Assembly: GCA_963664225.1 (NCBI GenBank)
Contig: OY760937.1
Coordinates: 288,001 to 352,000, forward strand
Source of the DNA: Verrucomicrobiia bacterium
GTDB taxonomy: Bacteria > Verrucomicrobiota > Verrucomicrobiia > Limisphaerales > UBA1319
Length of the DNA stretch: 64,000 nt
Direction of reading: 5' to 3'
The notes under the pieces were generated by a model that did no database searches, had not been told where the DNA came from, and worked only from the letters and a program-made list of their open reading frames with translations. Made by a program: the position numbers and the translations under genes. Positions 1,851-14,803 of this stretch are shown one piece after another (the first letter of the stretch is position 1; each line of letters begins with the position of its first letter).

Positions 1851-4800
1851 ATGAATTACACTATGAAAACCTGGGGATGCCTCTTTGCCGGGTTGCTGGC
1901 AGGCCTTGTCTTTTTGGGCAAGCCCGTTTCCGCGGCGAATGTCCTATCGGCAAACGATATCACAACAAACCGGCAACCCGCTAAATTTGCCGCGTTCCAA
2001 TTCGGCACACCAACCTCGGCTCATCGTCCTGGATTTACCAAGGTCACGATCAAAGACGCGTTCACGACTGAAAAGGGCTATGGTTTCCAGTCAACGGAGG
2101 GATTGCTGGAGTATGATCGCGGCGGCTCCGAAATTGTCCGTCCCAACGATGAATACACCGCCAGCGTGTATGGCGCATACCGATTCACCTCGGATATCAC
2201 ATGCGCCCTGGTCGAAGGAACCAAAGGCAATGCCTTCATGGTGGCCATGCCCGATGGAGATTATACGGTGTGGTTAATTGCAGGCGACGCCGAATGGGAA
2301 CCGCCGTTGTTCGAGGTTTGGGCAAACGGCCAGAAGAAAGTCGGAGTGAACATCCCGCGCGCGCGTTTTATTTTCATGGAGCCGTTTCAAGCGCGCGCGA
2401 CCAACGGACTATTGCAGATCGATTTGAAAGGGGAGCATGGTTGGGTTCTCAATGGTTTGGTGGTGGGCAGGGAAGGCCCTGAACTTGCCGAAACCGTCGC
2501 AAAACTGCAGCGCGACATTTTCTTCCTAACCGGGCAGGAGCTGCCGAGTTGGAAGGAGCGCAAATCCGCCTCACCCAATCCGCCTCTGGAATGGACTTCC
2601 GCCGAACAACAACAGGGCTACGTCGTCTTCCCAGTCGATTACACCGAATTGATTCTCCCAAGCTTCACGCCAACCCGCGCCATGATCGGCCAGCCGTTAA
2701 CCGCGTTTGCCACACCCGGGGAAATCGAGCCTGCGACATTCTGTGTTTCTGCCGGCAAGAATTTGGGAGAAGTCCGCGTGGAATACTCCGGCTTCGTGGG
2801 GGAACAAGGCAATCAAACCATCGCACGCACCAACGTGAGCATCCGCACTGTCCGTTGCTGGCCTCAACGCTTGAGCGGCTGGGGAGGCAATGGCGATTAC
2901 AGCGTGGTGCCGGAGGTCCTCGATCCCGTGGGCGGTCGGGCTTCTCGTGTGCAAGAGGGCCAGGTCAAGCAATGGTGGCTCACGGTAAATGTGCCGCAGG
3001 ATACCCCTGCGGGACGTTATCGCATGACACTGACGGTTCAGCCCGAGAATGCACCACCGACGGTTCTGGAGTGGAAGCTGCTTATTCTGCCCTTCTCGCT
3101 CAGCCGTCCCGCTGACAGGCATTGGGGCACATGGCTCGATACCTTCCCGCCGGTCGGAGGTTTGTCTGGCCCGGAACGGCGTGGACGCAATCTGCCTTCG
3201 GAAAGGGACCGCCTGGCCCGCGCCGACATGGCAGACTATCGGGAGCACGGTTTCGATCTGGTTCTGTTGAATTATTACTTTGGCGCGCAGGAGAATCCGG
3301 ATGGCAGCTTCACCTATGACACCTCGCAGCTTGCGCGCGATCTGGAGTACTGCAAACTCCTTGGCACCCGCGCGCCAGTGGTGCTGACCATTGAATACGC
3401 CTGCCGGGATTTCGAATATCGCTTCGCGGAGCCGGGGCAAAAACATGTTCCTGGCACCTTCAGTCCCAAGGCGCACAAGGCCATTGTTGGCCTGGTAAAG
3501 CACATCCGGGACGACGCGCAACGCCACGACTGGCCCAAGCTATACTTTTTCCCAATAGATGAACCGGGCAACAATAAAACGGATAACCGGATGCTGTTCG
3601 CCCAAAACGTGTTGGATTTCGTCCATGAAGTCCCCGGCTGTCAGACGGCCACCACGCTGACCGCAGGTGAAGTACAGCGCCTGGGCGACCGTGTGGATGT
3701 CCGGATTTACGCCTACGGAAATTACAATCGCACCAAGGTTCTGGAAGAAACCCGGCACGGTCATCCATTCTGGTATTACGAAAATGGCATGTTTTACGCA
3801 CACAGCCCCACCGCCTCGCGCAACATGACGGGATTTGAGTTTCTGAGATCAGGCGCGGAAGTGGCCACAGCGTGGGGTTTCTCCGCCACCCAGGCCAATC
3901 CTGAAAATGACTTCGATGGCGGGCATAAGGACTGGAACGTGATCTTCCCTGGCGTGGACAGGCCAACGCCGACCATTTACTGGGAGCTATGTCGCGAAGG
4001 GGTGGATGATTACCGCTATGTGACAACGCTCCAGGAGAAAATTCGCCAGGCCAGAGAAAGCGGGCAGATTGAATCCGCACGACGCGCAGAAGCCGTCCTG
4101 GCGCCGATCATCGATCCCAAAGCAACTGCGGTCAGTCAACCACAGGCCTTTGCCCGATACCGTTGGCGCATTGCGCGTGAGATTCTGAATCTGATGGGTC
4201 ACCAAAAGCTGGCCCTCTCATTCCCCGCCGTGGTCAAAAACTCGGCGGCTCCTGAAAAAACAGGGCCAAACCTCATTGAAGACCCTTCTTTTGAGAAGGG
4301 TCCGCAAGACGACAGGTTTCCGAGTCCGAACTATCAGATCGCCGACCGTTATTCGAAACTGGAATCCAAACCAGTGGACGCATTGAGCGTGACAGACGAA
4401 TCAGCGCATACAGGACGGTATTCCTTGAAATGGGATTTCAGCAAGGCCGCAGGCAAAGGCTCCCTCTATGACCGGAATCGTTACCTCATTGTCAATGTCC
4501 AGGTGCCGGCTGAGGCGGCGATCAAGCTGAGAGGCAAGCGCGTAAAAGTGGGCTGCTGGTTCAGGATCGGCAGCGGTTCACTCGTGCCTGGCATGAACCT
4601 CCGTCAGTCCGGAAAGGGCGCCTACCTGGCCGGAATTGAATACAGGGGAGGTGTGGCGGATCCAGCCGTGTGGAACCTCTTCCTGTCCGAAGGCCGCCTG
4701 CGCACTGATTTCGAGAACCTCGATATTCACATCTCCTGCCGCATTCCCGAAGACGATGTTGAGTTAGCCCAGAAATCCCACTTCTACATCGACGACGTCT

Positions 4801-5117
4801 TTCTCCAGGCCATCGAGGAACCGGTGCTTGCTGTAGCGACACCACTCGATGAGTATTATTCGGGCGAAACCGTTCCGTGGAATGTCAAAGCGGCTTCCGC
4901 GGCCCCGGTGAAGGTGCAGCTTGTGTCCCCGGAACGAATCGCCGCCGAGTGGACGGGTGAAATCGCAAACGGATCGCTGAACGGCTCTTTCGAAACCCGC
5001 AAAATAAAAGCCGGAATTTATACTCTGCGAGGGGTCATCGATTCACCACAAGGATCGCAAACCGCGGAGCAGCAGATCATTCTCTCTCCGGATCCATTTG
5101 GGCAGTTGGAGCCTTGA
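1851..5117 (+). CDS. Large secreted putative glycoside hydrolase (GH123/DUF4091-like) with accessory carbohydrate-binding-like modules
   Basis: Signal peptide, FPIDEP catalytic-like motif, TIYWELCREGVDDYRY (DUF4091-like), NLIEDPSFE CBM-like start in the C-terminal part. Confidence 0.6.
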   Translation: MNYTMKTWGCLFAGLLAGLVFLGKPVSAANVLSANDITTNRQPAKFAAFQFGTPTSAHRPGFTKVTIKDAFTTEKGYGFQSTEGLLEYDRGGSEIVRPNDEYTASVYGAYRFTSDITCALVEGTKGNAFMVAMPDGDYTVWLIAGDAEWEPPLFEVWANGQKKVGVNIPRARFIFMEPFQARATNGLLQIDLKGEHGWVLNGLVVGREGPELAETVAKLQRDIFFLTGQELPSWKERKSASPNPPLEWTSAEQQQGYVVFPVDYTELILPSFTPTRAMIGQPLTAFATPGEIEPATFCVSAGKNLGEVRVEYSGFVGEQGNQTIARTNVSIRTVRCWPQRLSGWGGNGDYSVVPEVLDPVGGRASRVQEGQVKQWWLTVNVPQDTPAGRYRMTLTVQPENAPPTVLEWKLLILPFSLSRPADRHWGTWLDTFPPVGGLSGPERRGRNLPSERDRLARADMADYREHGFDLVLLNYYFGAQENPDGSFTYDTSQLARDLEYCKLLGTRAPVVLTIEYACRDFEYRFAEPGQKHVPGTFSPKAHKAIVGLVKHIRDDAQRHDWPKLYFFPIDEPGNNKTDNRMLFAQNVLDFVHEVPGCQTATTLTAGEVQRLGDRVDVRIYAYGNYNRTKVLEETRHGHPFWYYENGMFYAHSPTASRNMTGFEFLRSGAEVATAWGFSATQANPENDFDGGHKDWNVIFPGVDRPTPTIYWELCREGVDDYRYVTTLQEKIRQARESGQIESARRAEAVLAPIIDPKATAVSQPQAFARYRWRIAREILNLMGHQKLALSFPAVVKNSAAPEKTGPNLIEDPSFEKGPQDDRFPSPNYQIADRYSKLESKPVDALSVTDESAHTGRYSLKWDFSKAAGKGSLYDRNRYLIVNVQVPAEAAIKLRGKRVKVGCWFRIGSGSLVPGMNLRQSGKGAYLAGIEYRGGVADPAVWNLFLSEGRLRTDFENLDIHISCRIPEDDVELAQKSHFYIDDVFLQAIEEPVLAVATPLDEYYSGETVPWNVKAASAAPVKVQLVSPERIAAEWTGEIANGSLNGSFETRKIKAGIYTLRGVIDSPQGSQTAEQQIILSPDPFGQLEP

Positions 5118-5174
5118 ATGCAATGTTTTTTCAAGCTGGTCAAAAGGACCAGCTCAACCTATTGGGATTCCACA

Positions 5175-5220
5175 GTTACCAACATTATTATCTGGTTACA
5201 AAGTTTATTATCCGAGTACA
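5175..5220 (-). mobile_element. Tn7-like transposon end (right-end-like) of a second element extending leftwards
   Basis: Minus strand reads TGTACTCG (8-bp terminus), then GATAATAAACTTTGTAAC, CA, GATAATAATGTTGGTAAC. These two 18-bp repeats at 20-bp period resemble Tn7 TnsB sites. Confidence 0.7.
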
Positions 5221-5222
5221 AA

Positions 5223-5296
5223 TATCCGTCCGTAATTAAGGATGTCACAAATCGTGCCTGGAGCATGGGCTCAATTCGTAATTAAGGACTGTCACA
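5223..5296 (+). repeat. Left end of the Tn7-like element: terminal 8-mer plus two spaced TnsB-like sites
   Basis: TATCCGTC + CGTAATTAAGGATGTCACA (5231-5249), and CGTAATTAAGGACTGTCACA (5277-5296). Confidence 0.8.
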
Positions 5297-5428
5297 ATAT
5301 TTTGCTTTTCAATTTCTGGTCCGAATCGACCTCACGGCCGTAATAATTTGATTGAATCTTAGGCGTGTCCACGATCCCGTGAAAAGTGTGTTTAGGTTTC
5401 GGGTCGTCTTTTTCGGTTGTTTCCGTGA

Positions 5429-8400
5429 TCATGGTATTTCAAACAACCGATAAAACTTGGAAATGTCCGACAAACCATTCGTGTCGGTGATAAACGTTGG
5501 TCCACCTGTGCCAGGGATTTTATCGCTCACCGGAACCCAATCTTGAGCTGGCAGATTCGTTGACATTTCCAGGCGATAAAAAGCTCCCGCAGCACCAGGG
5601 AACTGCAAAACGACATTCCGGTCTTTCACTTCCATTCCACTGATTAAAAGTTGAGGACGAGGACTCATGTTTAGGATCGACGCTGAAGCCTTGGTCGTGT
5701 TCAAAACGGCGTTCACTGGATTGGCCAAGTTTAGATAGAAGTTTTTGACCGCAGCCGAATCGGGAATTCCATATATTGGGATCGAAACGCATGCGTTTGT
5801 AACCCCGGGTGGCAAAACGAGGGTTCCTGACTTGCCCAGATAATCGCGGCCCGCAGCCGCGTTGCCATTTTGGGTGAAATAATCCACACTGGTTTGTGCG
5901 GCGTTGGTTCCAGACATTTGAATATTAAACAGTGCGTTGGTGATGCTGTCGGAAGCCATGGCCAGCGAGACATTGGTGACTGTAATGCCGCGCAAATTGC
6001 ATTCGAGGAGCGTGCAAGTGGCTGACGCAATTGGAGTTGATGTTGGCGAGCCAAGACTGACATTCAGATAAAATTCCAGGTTGGACCTTATGAGACCTTT
6101 ATCAATAATTACAACCGAATAGGTTTTTCCGGTTGCCCCAGGCTCGAATGTCAGCATTCCTATCAAAGGTGACATATAATCTTGAGAAGAAAGAGCTGTC
6201 CCGTTGATAGTGCGACAATACAGAGTGATTGGCTTAGTGCCAGGCACGTCAAGCATAACGTTAAAGTTGGCCTTAATACCGTTTTGGCGAGGGACAATCA
6301 GATTGCTTACGGATACGGAGGGCATTGGATAAATTGTTTCGGTGGAAACGATTTGGTTATTGGATGGATCGATATCCGGTTCGTTTTGCGAAATCGACGC
6401 CATGAATGGGATCGTCCCGGCTGTTGGAACCGTCGATACAACTGTGATCCCAACACTCGAACCGGACGCCATTGTCCCAACGTTGCAAATGACAACTCCG
6501 TTGGTTTGTGTGAAGGATCCCTGGGTCGAGCGGTTCGTGACAAGCGTTGAGCCATTGGCCAAAATATTGCTGAATGTAACCCCGGTGGCGGTTAAAGGCC
6601 CATCATTCGAAATCTTAAATGTGTTGGTTAGAGTGCCTCCGGCGATTGCCCAATTGTTGGTGGTTTCCAAAATGAGATCGCCCACAGCGGGGATTTTTGA
6701 AGTGCGTAGTAAGAAAAATTGGCAACGGAGTGAGGGAAAAGGGATATTGTAAGGATTTTCTGAAGTGGCAAAAGCCAGGGTTCCGGCCCCGCAACGGGTT
6801 AAGCTGTGAGCGATGCCTGATGCCCCGGGAATGGTGATTTGCCAAAGAACATTGCTCATATTTGTAGAGCAGGCGGCCAGCGTATAATTTGGATAGGGCG
6901 CATAACCGCCCTGGCCGAGGAAATAAGCTCGTCCATTTTCCACATCGGAGGCAACCAAACCAGATGCGGGATATACGCCCAGGTTAGTATTATTTAAAAG
7001 ATCCAGCGCATGTCCATTCGCTGCAATCAACAGATTGTCCTCTGTTTGGAAGTCACCCGCAAAACCGGCAAGATTAGTCAACACACCACCGATGCCAGAG
7101 GCATCAATGCCATATGCGGTAAAGGTCCCATTGACGGCATACAAGGTGGAACCATCTGGAGAGGCCTGAATTTGAAATGGACTTCCAAGGACAGGCCCGA
7201 TCACTTGCGGACGCTTGATCCCATCGTCAAATATGGCCACCTGCTGGCTGTAACTTCCATACCAAGGAGCCATGGACACAGTGATCGAGCGAGGTCGGTC
7301 AGGCAGGGGAGCAAAATCGGCCACGATGTAATTGACATCCATTCCAATATCGAATTGAAAATCGTTCGTCCAGGTCTGAATGTTAATTCGCGCAACGAAT
7401 CTCAGTTGGGTGGTTCCAACATACAAGAATTGGCTGTCGCTGGTTATTGCGATTTTGCCGGGTTCGAAGCCTGTGGGGAGGGATTTCTCCACAGTCCCAG
7501 TTTGCGGATCGATTTGAACAATGCTATTGCTGTAGGCTCCGGTGTTTAGCACTGTGGCGAACAGCTTATCTCTGATCGGATCGTAAACCATATCCCCGAT
7601 GCTCAGGTCGATTTTCTGATAAAACTGGACAAGGCTCGATTGCGCTGCCGAATTGTCAGCCATATCAAGATCCGGCTCATTGGCGGCCACGCGGACATAA
7701 TTCGAGAATGAACCAACGACATCCGGTCGCAGCAGAATGGAGATTTGTGCTGAGGCGCCAGGGGCCAATGTGCCCAATTGTGCCATCACGGTGCCATTAT
7801 TGTTGGAAATGGAGCCTTGGGTTGATGATGTCGATACGAATCTGGCTCCGGCAGGCAGGATGTCCCGCGCAACAATGCCAGTGGCCACGCCAGGGCCTTT
7901 ATTGCTGATGGTAAGGGTGATCGTATAATTCGTCATCAGGGTCGTTAAAGTCGGCGCCGATTGTGTGACCATCAGATCCGCAGGTTGATTGGTTGGCACC
8001 AATGGTGTTTGGATGGAAAATAGCTGCCCTCCTGTGGTGGCAAATGCCAGACCACGATCCCCCCATCGAACCAATTGTTCGGGCGCTCCAATTATGCCTG
8101 TCACCAACATGGATCCCATCAACTCATAGTTGTTCAAGGAATAGGCGGTAATCGTCGTCATGGAGTCATTTGGGATCACTTTCATGTAAAATACGCGGCC
8201 CGAAGCCATATCAGGACAGAGATGATTTGCATTCCTAGCCAGCCCCGGGAAAGTGGCCACATGTATCATTGATTCCGGATCCACTACCTCGCCCCATGCA
8301 AAAAACAGCAGACCACCGCCAGACCGCATCTCGGGCCCTCCGTCATACGTCAGCACATTAGCGGTTGAGGACACCGCATTGGTGCCATCCAATTGCACGC

Positions 8401-11400
8401 GAGTGATGCCTCCATTGTAGCCATAGAAAACATTGGGAGAAAGGGATGGCTGAATTAGAGAAATCTCAGGCGAAATGTTTAGTGCGGTGGCGATGCCGTT
8501 AGAAATGATTTTAACCCCGCGCCCGCTGGGAGTTCCGTAATTATAATGTTGTGAGAGCAGAACTGACTGGGCCTGATCCTGAAGAACAATCATTTCGCTC
8601 AGGTCATAGCTGTAAATCGAGTCTTGAAATGTGACGGCACTCGTCTTCAGGTCCACTTGCACGATGGTTGCTGTGCTTTGGAGATACGCATAAAGGTAGC
8701 GGCCGTCTGGGGAGATCGCCAGGGCGCCAGGTTCTGATCCCACCGCAATGGGATTGCCGGGATGCAGGCTCTCGGGATCGATCTTGACGATGCAGTTTCC
8801 ATAGGTTGTATCAGAGCCAGAAACGCTGGCATAAAGCATGCGATCGACGGGATTATAAATAAGATCATTGGCCTTAAGCAGCAGGTGGGCAACGGAGTTG
8901 GAGGCTGTGGAATCAAGGACCGTGGTCAACCAGCCAGACTCTTTATGCGCCAAATTTGAAGAATCCGACGTTGAGGCAATGCTCACGACATTGGTCAACA
9001 CCCCAAGGTCCTTGGTTCGGACGGTCACTTTCAGTGATGTTTCGCCATGAGGTGGAATTGCGCCGAACAAGGCGACGAGGATGCCGTTATTGTTTTGTGC
9101 TGTGCCCTGGCTGGGTGTGGCGTTCACCAGTGCTGCTCCGGCAGGCAATAGATCAGTCAAGATCACATCCTGAGCGCTCATGCTCCCGGAATTGGTTACG
9201 AGGATGCTATACGATATATCGCTTCCGGGTGTGGCGAGCGCCGGGCCGCTCTGGGTTACGGCCAATTGTGCTGAAGTTGAATCCGCGGCAAACGGGGAGC
9301 GAATCAAAAAGATTTGACCGCCCGTGGTGGCAAAAGCCAGTCCATTTGTTCCCCATCGCACAAGGTTTTTTGCACTGCCAACGATTCCAGGGATTGTTTG
9401 GGATCCTTGCAGAGTGAATGTCTCGATATCGCACGCATAAATGGCCGTTTGGTTTCCTTGTTGTGTTAAAAAGTAAATGATTCCTGCATCCGGATCGGGT
9501 GCGGGTGCTCCGCTGGCCAGTTTTCCCGGAACAGGGTATTGCCCGATGGGTTTCTGTTTCGCAGGGTTAAATGCAGTTCCATTGGAAACGTACATTGACC
9601 CTCCGCTGAGAATGCCGCCAGTTTCAAATCCTGGAACCAAAGCCAGGTCAGCGAGATTTGTCCGTGCAACCTCTCCATCATAAATGAAATCTAGAGGCCC
9701 GAATTGGCATTGTCCGGCAATGGCCAGGCTGGCGGGGCTGTTTGGCAAACCAATCAAGCTGATTGCATAAAAATTATAAGGGTTTTGAGGTAAAGAAAAT
9801 TCCAGGTCGGGCATTTGTGATGCCAGATTCAAGCGCTGGACGGAATAGCCGTTTTTTACGGCGATGTAGATAAATTGATTACTGGCCGAAAGGGCCATTA
9901 AGCCTGGGGCCGTGTCCACGGGGATGAAAGCCTCCACGGTGGCGGAGTAGGGATTGAGCCGCATCACTGTGTTTGATTCGACTGCAGCAGTTGCCGGGAC
10001 GGTCGCGTAAATCCGGTCTGTTCCCGGATCATACACGAGGTTGCTGACAGTGGCATTGAGGGACACAATGGATACAAATCCTACATTAAACGGGTTGCTT
10101 TGCCCCAATGTCTGGCCGCTTTGGGCGCGCACAGCAACATTTGTTGCGGCAGTGTTTATCATGATTGTTCCACTCCACCGCCCATTGGTAAAATGATCTG
10201 TTTGCGTTGGAACCAAGCTGTCCAGTGGCAACCCGATTGGAGATAGCGATGCAATGCCGGAAAAACCATCCAATGTGTCACCGCTTTTGTTCTGCGCCAG
10301 AATCGTAGCCGCAAATGGTTGATTGGCGGTTTGATTCAATGGAATTCGGGCAAAGGCGAAATGATCCAAATGTGTGTCGTGGATCAAAATCGTGCCGCTG
10401 GCATTGACGAAGCCTGATGCGGACGCGGAGACTGTGACCAATTGGTTTTGCCTGGGGCTGGAGCCAGGCGGGACGGTCAATTGGATCACGACCGAAGTCT
10501 GACCGGCTGGCAAGACCACAGTGACTGGAACCTGCAAGAAGCTGGAATCGCTGCCGGCCAGATTGATCACTAAATTGGTTTCGAGAGATCCTGCAATCAT
10601 GATCGTCGCATTGGTTGCATCTCCTGAACCTTCGAATAAACGATCAGGCACCTGCAGAACCAGATCATTTGCCTTGGCGCCAGAGATTGTGATCGATCCA
10701 CTTGCAGTTCCTTCGGAACCCGCGGATGCCGTCACCGTTAACTTTCTGCTGCCTAATATGACAGGGGCATTGGGCGCGTTGAGACTAAAACGGACATTGG
10801 TTTGGCCTGCCGGAATTCGAACATAAAGCGGCACATCCAACAAACTGGGATCGCTTGAACGCAATTCCGCCTGGAAATTCGAACCTGCGGGGACGCCTAT
10901 CGAGAGTTGGGCCTGGTTAGTGATTGTGCCTCCTTGCGGGATTATTTCCGACGGCAAGGTCAATTGCGGCAGCATGGGTGCGCTAAGATTTGTAATGAGG
11001 CCTTGTGTCATCAACGAAAGGGAATTCGAGGCTGTAATGGTGACAAACTGAATGCCGTCGATAACTGAATCGTTAAAATTTGTGAGGTTAAAACGGGCCG
11101 AAACATTGCCAGCCGGAATGGTAACCGTGGACGGTCCACCAATCTTCGATGGATTGTCAGAATTGAGATTGAAAACCAAATCAAAATCAATAGCGCGTGA
11201 AATGGCAATTGTTGCCGGGTGAATTTCCGACACAGTGCTCAAGGTCGTCGGCGGCAATGTCAGCATGACAGATGTGTTCAGGGTCTCGAATGGATTGCTG
11301 TTTCCAGGATGGCCATTCTCATCATCCACATGCAGGAACACATTGCTGGCGGAAGCGTTGACAGCCAAAAAGCCGCTCCAAACACCGTTCGTCAAGTTGA

Positions 11401-12298
11401 CCGCAGCCGGGTAAATCTGAACCGGTGTATAATTGGCAGCAAATGGAAGGCTGAGTTGTGAATTCAAAACACCGAACGACGGGAAAGCTTGAATCCAATC
11501 CATAGCCTGCCGATGGTTAAAGTTGCCTTGCCGTTGATACGACTTATACGCGATTCGAGCCGAAGTTGGCATGCCAATCCAATCGGACGATCGTATAGGA
11601 ACAGGATTGGTTATAAAAAACGGATAGCCCGTTGATGCGCAGAAGAAATCGATCAGCCCATTCGTATGGTTTAGCAAAGACATCGCAATCGGGCTGAGAT
11701 TATTTGGGTTTTCCATTATCGGCCCATCCGACGAGAAATTTGGATAGACTCCAGGGGGGACACCTCCTGGTATTATCGTGAAAACCGATTGGGGTGCGCA
11801 TATTGTGCCGGCGGGAAAAATAAAAGTCCTGACTGGCTGGGGCCAGTGTTCCAAATCATAATAGACTGCCTTCCAGCCAGAGATATCGACTGGGTTTGTG
11901 GATGGATTTGTGAATTCAACTCTCGAGTAATTGCCATTGTCCACTTCTGAAATAACCAGTGGCGGGATCGACAAGATTTGCGCGGAGACAGACACGCTGC
12001 CGTTGAAATCTGCAACTACTTGCTCTGCGCTGTCCCGGGCAGTTATTGTTGCTTTAATTGGAGCGCCCGCTACTTGAGGTGATTCAATGGGATTCCACGA
12101 AAAATGATCGAGCGAGGTAGCCTCCGTGTGCGAACAGATGGCCGACACCAAGACGCTCAACAGGACCGGAAAAATGAATGACTTTCGGCTTGTTTTGATA
12201 ATCTGGGAGAAATCAACGTTCTGGTTGCCAGACTCCGTTTTAAGGCCAGCCTGGCCGCCAATATTAAGCAATTTTTCCTCGCGAAATGAATGCTCCAT
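5429..12298 (-). CDS. Giant secreted/surface protein: lamin-tail-like domain, Ig-like repeats, 3x (beta-propeller + DUF11-like), 2x Calx-beta-like
   Basis: ORF is open to 12466; the ATG at 12298 has GAAGGA upstream. Hydrophobic signal ends SHTEA. LVISEVD...VDISGW motif, three LVYDP...RWGxxGLAFAT propellers each followed by a DUF11-like unit, T.NG.A...DY Calx-beta motifs, C-terminal FYRL. Confidence 0.8.
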   Translation of the reverse strand: MEHSFREEKLLNIGGQAGLKTESGNQNVDFSQIIKTSRKSFIFPVLLSVLVSAICSHTEATSLDHFSWNPIESPQVAGAPIKATITARDSAEQVVADFNGSVSVSAQILSIPPLVISEVDNGNYSRVEFTNPSTNPVDISGWKAVYYDLEHWPQPVRTFIFPAGTICAPQSVFTIIPGGVPPGVYPNFSSDGPIMENPNNLSPIAMSLLNHTNGLIDFFCASTGYPFFITNPVPIRSSDWIGMPTSARIAYKSYQRQGNFNHRQAMDWIQAFPSFGVLNSQLSLPFAANYTPVQIYPAAVNLTNGVWSGFLAVNASASNVFLHVDDENGHPGNSNPFETLNTSVMLTLPPTTLSTVSEIHPATIAISRAIDFDLVFNLNSDNPSKIGGPSTVTIPAGNVSARFNLTNFNDSVIDGIQFVTITASNSLSLMTQGLITNLSAPMLPQLTLPSEIIPQGGTITNQAQLSIGVPAGSNFQAELRSSDPSLLDVPLYVRIPAGQTNVRFSLNAPNAPVILGSRKLTVTASAGSEGTASGSITISGAKANDLVLQVPDRLFEGSGDATNATIMIAGSLETNLVINLAGSDSSFLQVPVTVVLPAGQTSVVIQLTVPPGSSPRQNQLVTVSASASGFVNASGTILIHDTHLDHFAFARIPLNQTANQPFAATILAQNKSGDTLDGFSGIASLSPIGLPLDSLVPTQTDHFTNGRWSGTIMINTAATNVAVRAQSGQTLGQSNPFNVGFVSIVSLNATVSNLVYDPGTDRIYATVPATAAVESNTVMRLNPYSATVEAFIPVDTAPGLMALSASNQFIYIAVKNGYSVQRLNLASQMPDLEFSLPQNPYNFYAISLIGLPNSPASLAIAGQCQFGPLDFIYDGEVARTNLADLALVPGFETGGILSGGSMYVSNGTAFNPAKQKPIGQYPVPGKLASGAPAPDPDAGIIYFLTQQGNQTAIYACDIETFTLQGSQTIPGIVGSAKNLVRWGTNGLAFATTGGQIFLIRSPFAADSTSAQLAVTQSGPALATPGSDISYSILVTNSGSMSAQDVILTDLLPAGAALVNATPSQGTAQNNNGILVALFGAIPPHGETSLKVTVRTKDLGVLTNVVSIASTSDSSNLAHKESGWLTTVLDSTASNSVAHLLLKANDLIYNPVDRMLYASVSGSDTTYGNCIVKIDPESLHPGNPIAVGSEPGALAISPDGRYLYAYLQSTATIVQVDLKTSAVTFQDSIYSYDLSEMIVLQDQAQSVLLSQHYNYGTPSGRGVKIISNGIATALNISPEISLIQPSLSPNVFYGYNGGITRVQLDGTNAVSSTANVLTYDGGPEMRSGGGLLFFAWGEVVDPESMIHVATFPGLARNANHLCPDMASGRVFYMKVIPNDSMTTITAYSLNNYELMGSMLVTGIIGAPEQLVRWGDRGLAFATTGGQLFSIQTPLVPTNQPADLMVTQSAPTLTTLMTNYTITLTISNKGPGVATGIVARDILPAGARFVSTSSTQGSISNNNGTVMAQLGTLAPGASAQISILLRPDVVGSFSNYVRVAANEPDLDMADNSAAQSSLVQFYQKIDLSIGDMVYDPIRDKLFATVLNTGAYSNSIVQIDPQTGTVEKSLPTGFEPGKIAITSDSQFLYVGTTQLRFVARINIQTWTNDFQFDIGMDVNYIVADFAPLPDRPRSITVSMAPWYGSYSQQVAIFDDGIKRPQVIGPVLGSPFQIQASPDGSTLYAVNGTFTAYGIDASGIGGVLTNLAGFAGDFQTEDNLLIAANGHALDLLNNTNLGVYPASGLVASDVENGRAYFLGQGGYAPYPNYTLAACSTNMSNVLWQITIPGASGIAHSLTRCGAGTLAFATSENPYNIPFPSLRCQFFLLRTSKIPAVGDLILETTNNWAIAGGTLTNTFKISNDGPLTATGVTFSNILANGSTLVTNRSTQGSFTQTNGVVICNVGTMASGSSVGITVVSTVPTAGTIPFMASISQNEPDIDPSNNQIVSTETIYPMPSVSVSNLIVPRQNGIKANFNVMLDVPGTKPITLYCRTINGTALSSQDYMSPLIGMLTFEPGATGKTYSVVIIDKGLIRSNLEFYLNVSLGSPTSTPIASATCTLLECNLRGITVTNVSLAMASDSITNALFNIQMSGTNAAQTSVDYFTQNGNAAAGRDYLGKSGTLVLPPGVTNACVSIPIYGIPDSAAVKNFYLNLANPVNAVLNTTKASASILNMSPRPQLLISGMEVKDRNVVLQFPGAAGAFYRLEMSTNLPAQDWVPVSDKIPGTGGPTFITDTNGLSDISKFYRLFEIP

Positions 12299-12872
12299 AA
12301 TGAGTCCTTCAGAAATGTATGTCACGGCCTGCTTGTGGAGGATTGTATGCTTTTCGTTATTCAAGTCAATTATAATACTCCGGCAAAAATTCAAGAAAAG
12401 TGCGGTCTGACAGAGGTCATGAGAAAACATGGAGGCAAAGAGCGTCAAAAAGTGAACTCCTCTCATCGTGATTTGTGACTTTTATGCCCGCTGATGTGTT
12501 TCTGGGGCGTCATTGCAGATTCTTGCTTTAAAGTTTCTTAAAGATGTACGCAAGTTGAGCGGTAATTTTCCTGCCTCTTCCTTCACTTCCTGGGGACTAT
12601 TTACTGGGCCATACGGAAATTGCTACTCTGTGGAAGTCGCAAATGCGTGGGAAAATCTGGTTTTTCGCCAATACAAGTGGATTCGTAAGCGAGTTAAGTG
12701 AGCGGGGAGATGTGTTCCGATACTTCAGATCGTGCCTCCCTGCAGTAAGATGGTCTTGCCGTTTACCTGAGCTCATTTCCAGCCTGTGAATAATCATCAG
12801 AAGATTCCGGAGGAACCTCAAAATAAACCAGGTGTATTTGTGAATTGCGCCATGCCTGGCCCAATCCAGATT

Positions 12873-12919
12873 TGTGACATACCTCAATTAAATGTGACAT
12901 CCATAATTACGGACGGACA
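12873..12919 (-). repeat. Right (glmS-proximal) end of the Tn7-like element: TGT terminus plus two contiguous TnsB-like sites
   Basis: Minus strand reads TGTCCGTC CGTAATTATGGATGTCACA TTTAATTGAGGTATGTCACA. Confidence 0.85.
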
Positions 12920-12943: not shown

Positions 12944-14803
12944 TTATTCGACGGTGACGCTTTTGGCCAGGTTGCGGGGCTTATCCACGTCACAGCCGCG
13001 CGCGACGGCGATGTGATAGGCCAGGAGTTGGAGCGGCACGATGGCGAGCAACGGGAACACGGGATCCATGGTGGCGGGAATGGAGATGACGTGATCGGCC
13101 AGGCGCGCCACGTGTTCGTTGCCTTCTGTGGCCAGGGCGATGATGGGGCCTTTGCGGGCTTTGATTTCCTGGAGATTGCTCAGTGTCTTATCATACCAAG
13201 TGCCTGAAGGAGTGAGAATGACCGAGGGTGTGTGCTCGTCGATCAGGGCGATGGGGCCGTGTTTCATTTCCGCAGCGGGATAGCCTTCGGCGTGGATGTA
13301 AGAGATTTCCTTGAGCTTGAGGGCTCCTTCGAGGGAAGCGGGAAAGCAGTATTGTCGGCCGAGAAAGAAGAAGTTTTGGGCGTCCTTGAATTTCAAGGCC
13401 ACGGTTTTAATTTCTTCGGACAGGGTGAGGACTTTTTGAAGTTGCTCGGGGACAGCTTCCAAGGCGTGAATCAGTTCGGCGCCGCGGCCTGATGCAAGCA
13501 TCCGCATGCGTCCCATGAACAGGGCCAGCAGGGCCAGGACGGTGACCTGGGAGGTGAAGGCCTTCGTGGAGGCGACACCGATTTCCGGGCCCGCATGGAG
13601 GTAAATGCCGCCATCGGCTTCGCGTGCGATGGTGCTGCCGACGACGTTGCAAATGGAGAGGACCTTGTGCCCCCGCCTTTTGGATTCGCGCAGGCCGGCG
13701 AGTGTGTCGAGTGTTTCCCCGGATTGTGTAATGGCCAGGACGAGGGTGCTTTTGTCGATGGGCGCGTTGCGGTAGCGAAATTCGCTGGCGTATTCGACTT
13801 CGACCGGGATGTGGGCAAATTCTTCAATGAGGTATTCGCCAAGAAGTGCGGCGTGCCAGCTTGTGCCGCAGGCGATGAGGACGATGCGGTCCACGGCGCG
13901 CAACTCGGCGGCGGTGAGATTTAAACCGCCGAATTTGGCTGTGGCTTCGTCGTGATCGATGCGTCCGCGCAGGGCGTTGGCGACGGTCTGGGGTTGCTCA
14001 AAGATTTCCTTGAGCATGAAATGCGGGAATGCGCCCCGTTCGATGGCCTCGGCGCCGTATTCGATCTGGCTGATCTGGACCTTGGCGGTGTCGGAGCCCA
14101 GGCTGGTGACGTTGAAACGCTCGCGGGTGAGGGTGACGACGTCGTAGTCGTTGAGATAGACCACCTGGCGGGTGTGGGCGACCATGGCACTCGCGTCGCT
14201 GGCCAGAAAGTATTCACCCTGACCCACGCCGACGATGAGCGGGGAACCGCGGCGGGCGCCGACCATGATTCCGGGATGATCGGCGCTGATGACGGCCAGG
14301 CCATAGGTGCCAATCACGTCACGAAGGGCGTCCATGACGGCTTGTGTGAGAATGGCATCCTCCGAAGCGCCTGCGGCTTTGAGTTTTTGATAGCACTCGC
14401 CAATCAAATGGGCCAGGACTTCGCTGTCCGTTTGAGAATGGAAAATGTGTCCAGCCTTGAGCAGACGTTCCTTGAGACGCTCGAAATTCTCAACCACTCC
14501 GTTATGGACCACGGCAATGCGGCCCGATTGGTCGAGATGCGGATGGGCGTTTTCGTCAGACGGTGGTCCGTGCGTGGCCCAGCGGGTATGCCCCAGACCC
14601 AGGGAACCGGTCGGGGAACCAAGCGCCAGACTGCGTGCCAGACCCTCGTCGATTTTTCCGCGTTTTTTGACGGTTTCCAGCCGACTATCTTCGAGCACGG
14701 TGATGCCCGCGCTATCGTAGCCCCGGTATTCGAGCCGTCGGAGGCCTTCCAGCAGGATTGGAGAGGCCGATTTGCTGCCAATATAGCCAACGATTCCGCA
14801 CAT
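12944..14803 (-). CDS. glmS: Glutamine--fructose-6-phosphate transaminase (isomerizing)
   Basis: N-terminal MCGIVG, LEYRGYDSAG, GHTRWATHG, C-terminal DKPRNLAKSVTVE. Confidence 0.99.
   Translation of the reverse strand: MCGIVGYIGSKSASPILLEGLRRLEYRGYDSAGITVLEDSRLETVKKRGKIDEGLARSLALGSPTGSLGLGHTRWATHGPPSDENAHPHLDQSGRIAVVHNGVVENFERLKERLLKAGHIFHSQTDSEVLAHLIGECYQKLKAAGASEDAILTQAVMDALRDVIGTYGLAVISADHPGIMVGARRGSPLIVGVGQGEYFLASDASAMVAHTRQVVYLNDYDVVTLTRERFNVTSLGSDTAKVQISQIEYGAEAIERGAFPHFMLKEIFEQPQTVANALRGRIDHDEATAKFGGLNLTAAELRAVDRIVLIACGTSWHAALLGEYLIEEFAHIPVEVEYASEFRYRNAPIDKSTLVLAITQSGETLDTLAGLRESKRRGHKVLSICNVVGSTIAREADGGIYLHAGPEIGVASTKAFTSQVTVLALLALFMGRMRMLASGRGAELIHALEAVPEQLQKVLTLSEEIKTVALKFKDAQNFFFLGRQYCFPASLEGALKLKEISYIHAEGYPAAEMKHGPIALIDEHTPSVILTPSGTWYDKTLSNLQEIKARKGPIIALATEGNEHVARLADHVISIPATMDPVFPLLAIVPLQLLAYHIAVARGCDVDKPRNLAKSVTVE

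Follow-up and report, generated by a model that had tools for sequence, protein, structure and literature searches.

The 46 bases at positions 5175 to 5220 are best read as the fossil right end of an earlier occupant of the attachment site attTn7, an element that was pushed away from glmS by a later insertion and the rest of which was deleted. We place the probability of this reading at roughly 0.72. Judged by its sequence, the 46-base feature itself is a genuine Tn7-family right end, referred to below as the relic, and it is most probably without present function. The window analysed here is a stretch of 64,000 nucleotides, corresponding to positions 288001-352000 of a single contig of 5.78 Mb, and all positions are those of the window unless stated otherwise.

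Read directly on the minus strand from 5220 to 5175, the relic consists of TGTACTCG, GATAATAAACTTTGTAAC, CA and GATAATAATGTTGGTAAC, exactly as given in the preliminary description of this DNA. It thus comprises an 8-base TGT terminus and two 18-base sites with a 20-base period, and the site pair is also listed as a 20-nt tandem repeat with 80% identity. The terminal TGT (3'-ACA), found at 5220-5218 of the minus strand, forms the outer boundary, and it is followed by directly repeated, adjoining sites that are TnsB-type by sequence; both features are those of a Tn7 right end. A degenerate 18-mer has two matches in the window, both on the minus strand, against a shuffle mean of 0.03, and two matches were seen in 0 of 100 shuffles. 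A position matrix was derived from foreign loci only (24 sites, 8 loci), with the sites of the window left out. When the 5.78 Mb genome was scanned with it, the two relic sites took ranks 1 and 2 of 11,566,818 positions, with the next best position at 19.1 bits. Scored with the same matrix as a tandem at an offset of 20, the relic reaches 51.0 and the runner-up 7.2. There is no third relic site, as the next slot (5155-5172) scores -31.5 bits with this foreign-only matrix. The coordinates of the relic and of the features discussed below are collected in Table 1.

Table 1. Positions of the relic, the neighbouring 7.7-kb unit and glmS in the window, and of regions compared with them in other genomes.
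Feature	Position	Strand	Remarks
Relic, inner TnsB-type site GATAATAATGTTGGTAAC	5175-5192	-	27.1 bits, genome rank 1
Relic, outer TnsB-type site GATAATAAACTTTGTAAC	5195-5212	-	23.9 bits, genome rank 2
Relic, terminal segment TGTACTCG, 8 bases	5213-5220	-	TGT at 5220 faces glmS
AA between the relic terminus and the TAT left start of the 7.7-kb unit	5221-5222	.	5-base duplication expected here
Left end of the 7.7-kb Tn7-like unit	5223-5297	+	Begins TAT instead of TGT; sites 5231-5249 and 5279-5297
Only gene of the 7.7-kb unit	5429-12466	-	2345-residue protein with DUF11, Calx-beta and lamin-tail domains
Right end of the 7.7-kb unit	12872-12919	-	Terminus TGTCCGTC; two adjoining sites, 12893-12911 and 12872-12890
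Spacer from the right terminus of the unit (…GGACA, 12919) to the glmS stop codon	12920-12943	.	24 bases; attTn7-type insertion point
glmS (glutamine-fructose-6-phosphate aminotransferase)	12944-14803	-	SIS domain 7e-60; GATase_6, GATase_7
pilC-associated end, L093	2193-2240		
pilC-associated ends, L106 and L112	9993-10058		
pilC-associated end, L107	9991-10036		
Region downstream of glmS in G001	L158 1300-1541 with L152 1-60		

On the inner side of the relic, 58 bases away, stands the stop codon of a convergent gene for a 1088-residue GH123-like protein. Because the DNA next to the relic on this side is the 3' end of that gene, with its host-like GC content, the interior of the old element is unrecognisable. 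Positions 5134-5160, which lie between this stop codon and the relic, contain a perfect stem of 8 bases (AGCTGGTC / GACCAGCT). Its T run precedes rather than trails it, so that the stem does not qualify as a standard terminator in either direction. Scans of the relic region gave neither an Rfam family nor a terminator-like site.

The right end of Tn7, as read from plasmid R721 (NC_002525), begins TGTGGGCG GACAATAAAGTCTTAAAC, just as stated in the preliminary description, which proposed a Tn7 right-end architecture for the relic. The two ends align in register and agree at 13 of the 18 positions of the first site. Each opens with an 8-base TGT terminus, and the adjoining TnsB-type sites behind it share a GA(C/T)AATAA...AAC core and a period of about 20 bases; the relic end faces glmS as that of Tn7 does, at a short fixed distance in the case of Tn7. 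In contrast to Tn7, which has four sites, the relic has two, and it is not followed by tnsA, has neither a left end nor a 5-base duplication, is found in a genome without tns genes, and now lies 7.7 kb from glmS.

Relatives of the relic end were sought by a pattern scan for two tandem sites in one genome per species of bacteria and archaea, which returned at least 119 stretches, of which 80 were examined. Eleven of these 80 loci have TGT, 5 to 8 bases and 18-base sites placed 2 bases apart, and the other 69 are unrelated AT-rich, coding or simple repeats. The eleven belong to the Acidobacteriota (L033, L036, L090, L093, L106, L107 and L112), the Gammaproteobacteria (L047, L062 and L068) and the Gemmatimonadota (L049). 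The end in the window aligns with its foreign relatives in register and with 15-16 of 18 bases identical per site, the outer site matching that of L112 at 15 of 18 positions. The layout of the terminal segment, TGT plus 5 bases, is that of the Tn7 right end and of L062, L112, L036 and L106, and the TGT itself aligns with the TGT of Tn7 and of five relatives.

The relic resembles, in its site identity, its TGT plus 5 bases and its 2-base spacers, an unnamed Tn7-like family with GACAATAAAGTYGGTAAC sites that is represented by L036, L093, L106, L107, L112, L062 and L049. The likeness extends to the spacing from glmS in L062, provided that the 7.7-kb unit is removed in thought, to the solo two-site remnants exemplified by L093, and to the stacking of a newer element on an older remnant in L062. 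The relic differs from this family in belonging to another phylum, in having T rather than C at position 3 of its sites, and in its association with glmS, as most of the acidobacterial copies are found after pilC.

Two members of the family lie beside glmS. The distance between terminus and glmS stop codon is exactly 24 bases in L062 (Denitrificimonas caeni) and 21 bases in L049. At glmS, the L062 locus (9814-10036) harbors a gene-less, miniature Tn7-like element of 192 bases, and a gap of 5 bases separates it on the left from the remnant of an older right end. The right end of L062, which looks to be a working one, has two sites only, and two sites may thus be the full set of the relic as well. 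Near-identical copies of the miniature element are present on two more gammaproteobacterial contigs (L047 and L068). A comparison of the window with the miniature element gave a similarity that fades after about 51 bases, the 24 of 54 identical bases being no more than a forced alignment yields, and does not show that the relic is a former miniature element or where it was truncated.

In L093, L106, L107 and L112 the end is found about 12-23 bases after the stop codon of pilC (T2SSF), and pilC appears to be a recurrent landing site of this end family in the Acidobacteriota. The first inner gene of the pilC-associated acidobacterial ends encodes an XRE-type regulator. The element in L106 also contains a TnsD fragment (PF15978, E 4e-18) that is broken by an IS. 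A plasmid search with the L062 element returned right-end-like pieces on Nitrosomonas plasmids and left-end-like ones next to SprT-like genes; right- and left-end-like pieces of the family beside SprT-like genes, in Nitrosomonas, Citrobacter and Aeromonas, include L170 (7563-7610) and L171 (9001-9081). The neighborhood of the SprT-like gene may be a plasmid landing site.

At the landing site of Tn7-type elements, which is marked by the 3' end of glmS, a different unit is found today. Between the relic and glmS, and in the same orientation as the relic, lies a 7.7-kb unit with its own inverted ends and its own site repeats, an arrangement that has the form of tandem stacking of different Tn7-like elements. 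The inverted ends of the unit (5225-5249 and 12893-12917) are 96% complementary over 25 nt, and the inner site copies form a second inverted pair (5279-5297 and 12872-12890) that is 84% complementary over 19 nt. The end sites, of the CGTAATTAAGGATGTCACA type, adjoin on the side of glmS and are spaced on the far side, as in Tn7. The unit has a GC content of 46-52% compared with 55-60% in its flanks; its surface-protein gene runs inward from the glmS-side end, and it carries no transposition genes. Its 27-base end sequence does not occur elsewhere in the genome. The older and the newer right ends share 14 of 26 aligned bases, which bears out the earlier statement that their sites differ, and it can reasonably be inferred that the relic and the unit were served by different TnsB proteins.

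At the junction, the relic terminus (plus-strand ACA, 5218-5220) points towards glmS and is followed by AA and then by the left end of the unit, TATCCGTCCG…, which equals TGTCCGTCCG… of the right end apart from the A in TAT. The unit has no 5-base target duplication, as its left flank reads ...ACAAA and its right flank AAGGC, with 2 bases rather than 5 between the termini of relic and unit; the relic, without a left end, offers no pair of flanks in which to look for one. A simple second insertion would give the relic, AAGGC and TGT, and the AA and TAT that are seen instead would call for a small lesion. The sequence ACAAA does occur at both junctions (5218-5222 and 12915-12919), but as a target duplication it would leave the unit with termini that do not end in CA, and the TGT/ACA reading is preferred.

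By binding the end of glmS, TnsD sends Tn7 into a position at a fixed distance from the gene, and the right end of the inserted element faces glmS. If positions 5221-12919 are taken out in thought, the TGT terminus of the relic comes to lie 24 bases from the glmS stop codon, as had been calculated correctly in the preliminary description, and this is also the spacing seen in L062 and in the 7.7-kb unit. No genome or sequencing run shows the relic directly beside glmS, and no contig joins 5220 to 12920, although contigs cannot prove absence.

These observations suggest a history of three steps. In the first, a TnsD-type protein would have directed an element of the GATAATAA type to the 3' end of glmS, where it inserted about 24 bases past the stop codon with its right end towards glmS. 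The 7.7-kb unit, with its different end sites, would then have landed at the same point and shifted the older right end 7.7 kb away from glmS. Either before or after this second insertion, the remaining older element would have been deleted. A resident end should block only those elements whose TnsB binds its sites, and a relic or foreign end would accordingly be no bar to landing. The order of arrival and the escape from target immunity are both inferred, the order from the established fixed-distance targeting by TnsD: as insertion takes place at a fixed distance next to glmS, the element nearest to glmS would be the latest arrival. The orientation of the relic, the 2-base gap, the 24-base spacing and the different end sites all fit an older occupant that was displaced, which is the history that had been proposed from the sequence at the outset.

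Tn7 islands built by repeated insertion were reportedly first described by Parks and Peters in 2007. Comparable arrangements are recounted in passages of a paper on Tn6022 and its relatives in Acinetobacter baumannii, in which several ends share one landing site together with remnants of ancestral insertions (PMC11014353). The same passages state that target immunity depends on TnsB binding sites and can be bypassed, and that alteration of the terminal TGT/ACA immobilises such elements (PMC11014353). The arrangement at glmS resembles these islands in its repeated ends and remnants at one attachment site. It differs from them in that it holds only a 46-base relic and a transposase-less unit, with no resistance genes, in a clade where TnsD-type elements are hardly found.

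The remainder of the older element was sought throughout the genome. No other copies of the relic site cluster at up to one mismatch, and none is found at up to four mismatches, anywhere in the genome; the position matrix likewise reveals no second site cluster. Fuzzy matches at genome positions 4245009 and 4247717 lie inside open reading frames and were dropped as chance. The preliminary description had proposed that a cognate left end, with a 5-base flank matching AAGGC, be looked for upstream, and no such end was found: there is no left-end-like site of at least 4 bits in 4700-5175, and no cognate left end in the genome. The two sets of TnsB and TnsD genes that had been envisaged did not materialise either, as no tnsA-E genes were found in the genome. 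PF09299 and PF06527 (Mu-transpos_C and TniQ) have no match in it, a result that is weak alone as the controls were equally blank. All of the rve matches are of IS size, the sole larger one, of 434 residues, being of IS481 type. A tblastn search of the genome with TnsA-E of Tn7 and the TnsD fragment of L106 gave nothing below E 0.05. A 203-residue TnsA_N-like match was rejected, as it falls below the cut-off and stands alone among unrelated genes.

With no left end for the relic and no tns genes found in the genome, both the relic and the 7.7-kb unit are left as orphans. Neither can move now, since none of TnsA, TnsB, TnsC and TnsD is encoded in the genome and the left terminus of the unit is TAT and not TGT. 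The missing left end, duplication and tns genes are as expected of a relic.

The older element may have had a different fate, namely that it was never deleted and that the DNA to the left of 5175, including the GH123-like gene, a PQQ beta-propeller gene and more, is its cargo, making up a large old island from which the left end and the tns genes have decayed or been lost. We consider this improbable, although it draws some strength from the comparison with G001, a genome of the same genus. The GH123-like protein is not found in G001 at E 1e-20, and the order of genes around glmS is scrambled between G000 and G001, with the consequence that nothing marks the DNA on the left as core and that the borders of an island could not be set. 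In G001, moreover, glmS is followed by about 190 bases and then by the end of a different, unannotated gene, with no Tn7-like end. Set against this, the GC content to the left of the relic is 54-59% and genome-like, compared with the lower value of the unit; no left-end-like site or cluster is found upstream or genome-wide; searches with Pfam and with Tn7 TnsA-E in tblastn bring up no tns remnant; and the gene that comes first on the inner side of the relic reads towards the terminus, unlike tnsA in Tn7. As a separate observation on G001, the end of its contig C41 has the same bases as the start of C3.

Neither end family was met with again among the relatives searched. The older end has no relative in the 400 other genomes of the phylum that were searched, and the newer end has none in 120 other genomes of the order. 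In none of 61 genomes of the order does TnsD exceed the cut-off; three weak matches were obtained, and these three TnsD-like loci have no site of either the relic or the unit type. The junction region has no DNA similarity to 40 relatives save for one chance match of 39 bases. A metagenome scan with a 19-mer from the end of the unit returned 11 loci, none of which has Tn7-like flanks; eight of the 11, with an open reading context in common, look like one conserved coding gene, and the other three have other flanks.

The unit itself does occur elsewhere. Two sequencing runs from different studies, X1 from sludge and X2 from wastewater, contain pieces that share 90-99% identity with the interior of the 7.7-kb unit, and in both runs 4600-5187 is without cover. 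In X1, one contig with a depth of 4.86 matches the window from 5220 rightwards and continues leftwards with 255 unlike letters. The match from 5220 together with the unlike left flank means that, on this one low-depth contig, the left boundary of the unit is real and lies at 5220/5221, and that the relic does not belong to the unit as a constant component. The X1 copy is identical to the window across 5220-5257, and as there is no difference in this interval the TAT terminus is not a private mutation of the present genome. A joint in X1 leads from 5297 back to 5280 with 36 letters between, a joint that amounts to an extra copy of the inner left-end site, and on the right the similarity of the X1 copy ends at 12261. 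Within the X1 left flank, the 30 letters shown include a TGT-led stretch that could be another transposon end, seen on the one low-depth contig. The whole stretch is present in runs X7-X9, which may be its source, and the same strain seems to be present in X10 and X11 as fragmented assemblies.

With copies of 90-99% identity in two runs from different studies and one different left flank, a wider reading of the unit is kept open. The 7.7-kb unit would be a cargo-only Tn7-like element in which working ends enclose nothing but a giant adhesin-like gene. It would still be circulating in bacteria of sludge and wastewater, moved in trans by an unseen autonomous partner; the glmS site would have been hit at least twice from outside the phylum, with the relic as the first footprint. 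This wider reading is tentative, and we think it rather unlikely to hold in full.

The X1 flank also bears on whether the relic preceded the unit at glmS at all. The two might have been transferred together as one block, or an element of the GATAATAA type might have inserted later, and by another route, beside the left end of the unit. Neither insertion can be traced to a simple event by a target duplication, and with neither end family otherwise seen in the clade the import of a single block is conceivable. Both versions are nevertheless distinctly improbable, given that the X1 copy (one contig) has different DNA to the left of 5220, that the relic is spaced from glmS as in L062 once the unit is removed, and that fixed-distance targeting at glmS explains the 2-base proximity of the termini with no extra assumption. 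To our knowledge, moreover, no Tn7 pathway targets the outer face of the left end of another element, which counts against a later insertion.

That the two 18-base repeats are a chance resemblance or a host regulator site, rather than transposon DNA, is very improbable indeed, as the fact that there are only two copies and no protein partner encoded in the genome is outweighed by their top ranks among 11.57 million positions and their tandem score, by a TGT plus 5 bases, a 20-base period and an orientation that are all as in Tn7-family right ends, and by their place between two convergent gene ends rather than upstream of a gene, with no further copy at any promoter of this genome, where the preliminary description had named recurrence at unrelated promoters as the finding that would speak for a regulator. 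None of these alternatives fits as well as the displacement of an older occupant from glmS.

Stacking at attTn7 is a known phenomenon, and repeated insertion and remnants at Tn7-type attachment sites have already been described, at least in the passages of PMC11014353 referred to above. The relic is in this sense an ordinary trace that reveals no new mechanism, and the surprise that it holds is modest. Its value lies elsewhere. It is of use in annotation, where it helps to place a boundary of the 7.7-kb surface-protein unit that was acquired horizontally, and it indicates that earlier insertions can leave lasting, datable footprints in the form of short right-end remnants. Together with L062 and the pilC-associated ends, the relic adds one more case of island building by repeated insertion at a single site, and it points to a glmS landing site that has been used more than once in a lineage where Tn7-type transposons are hardly found.
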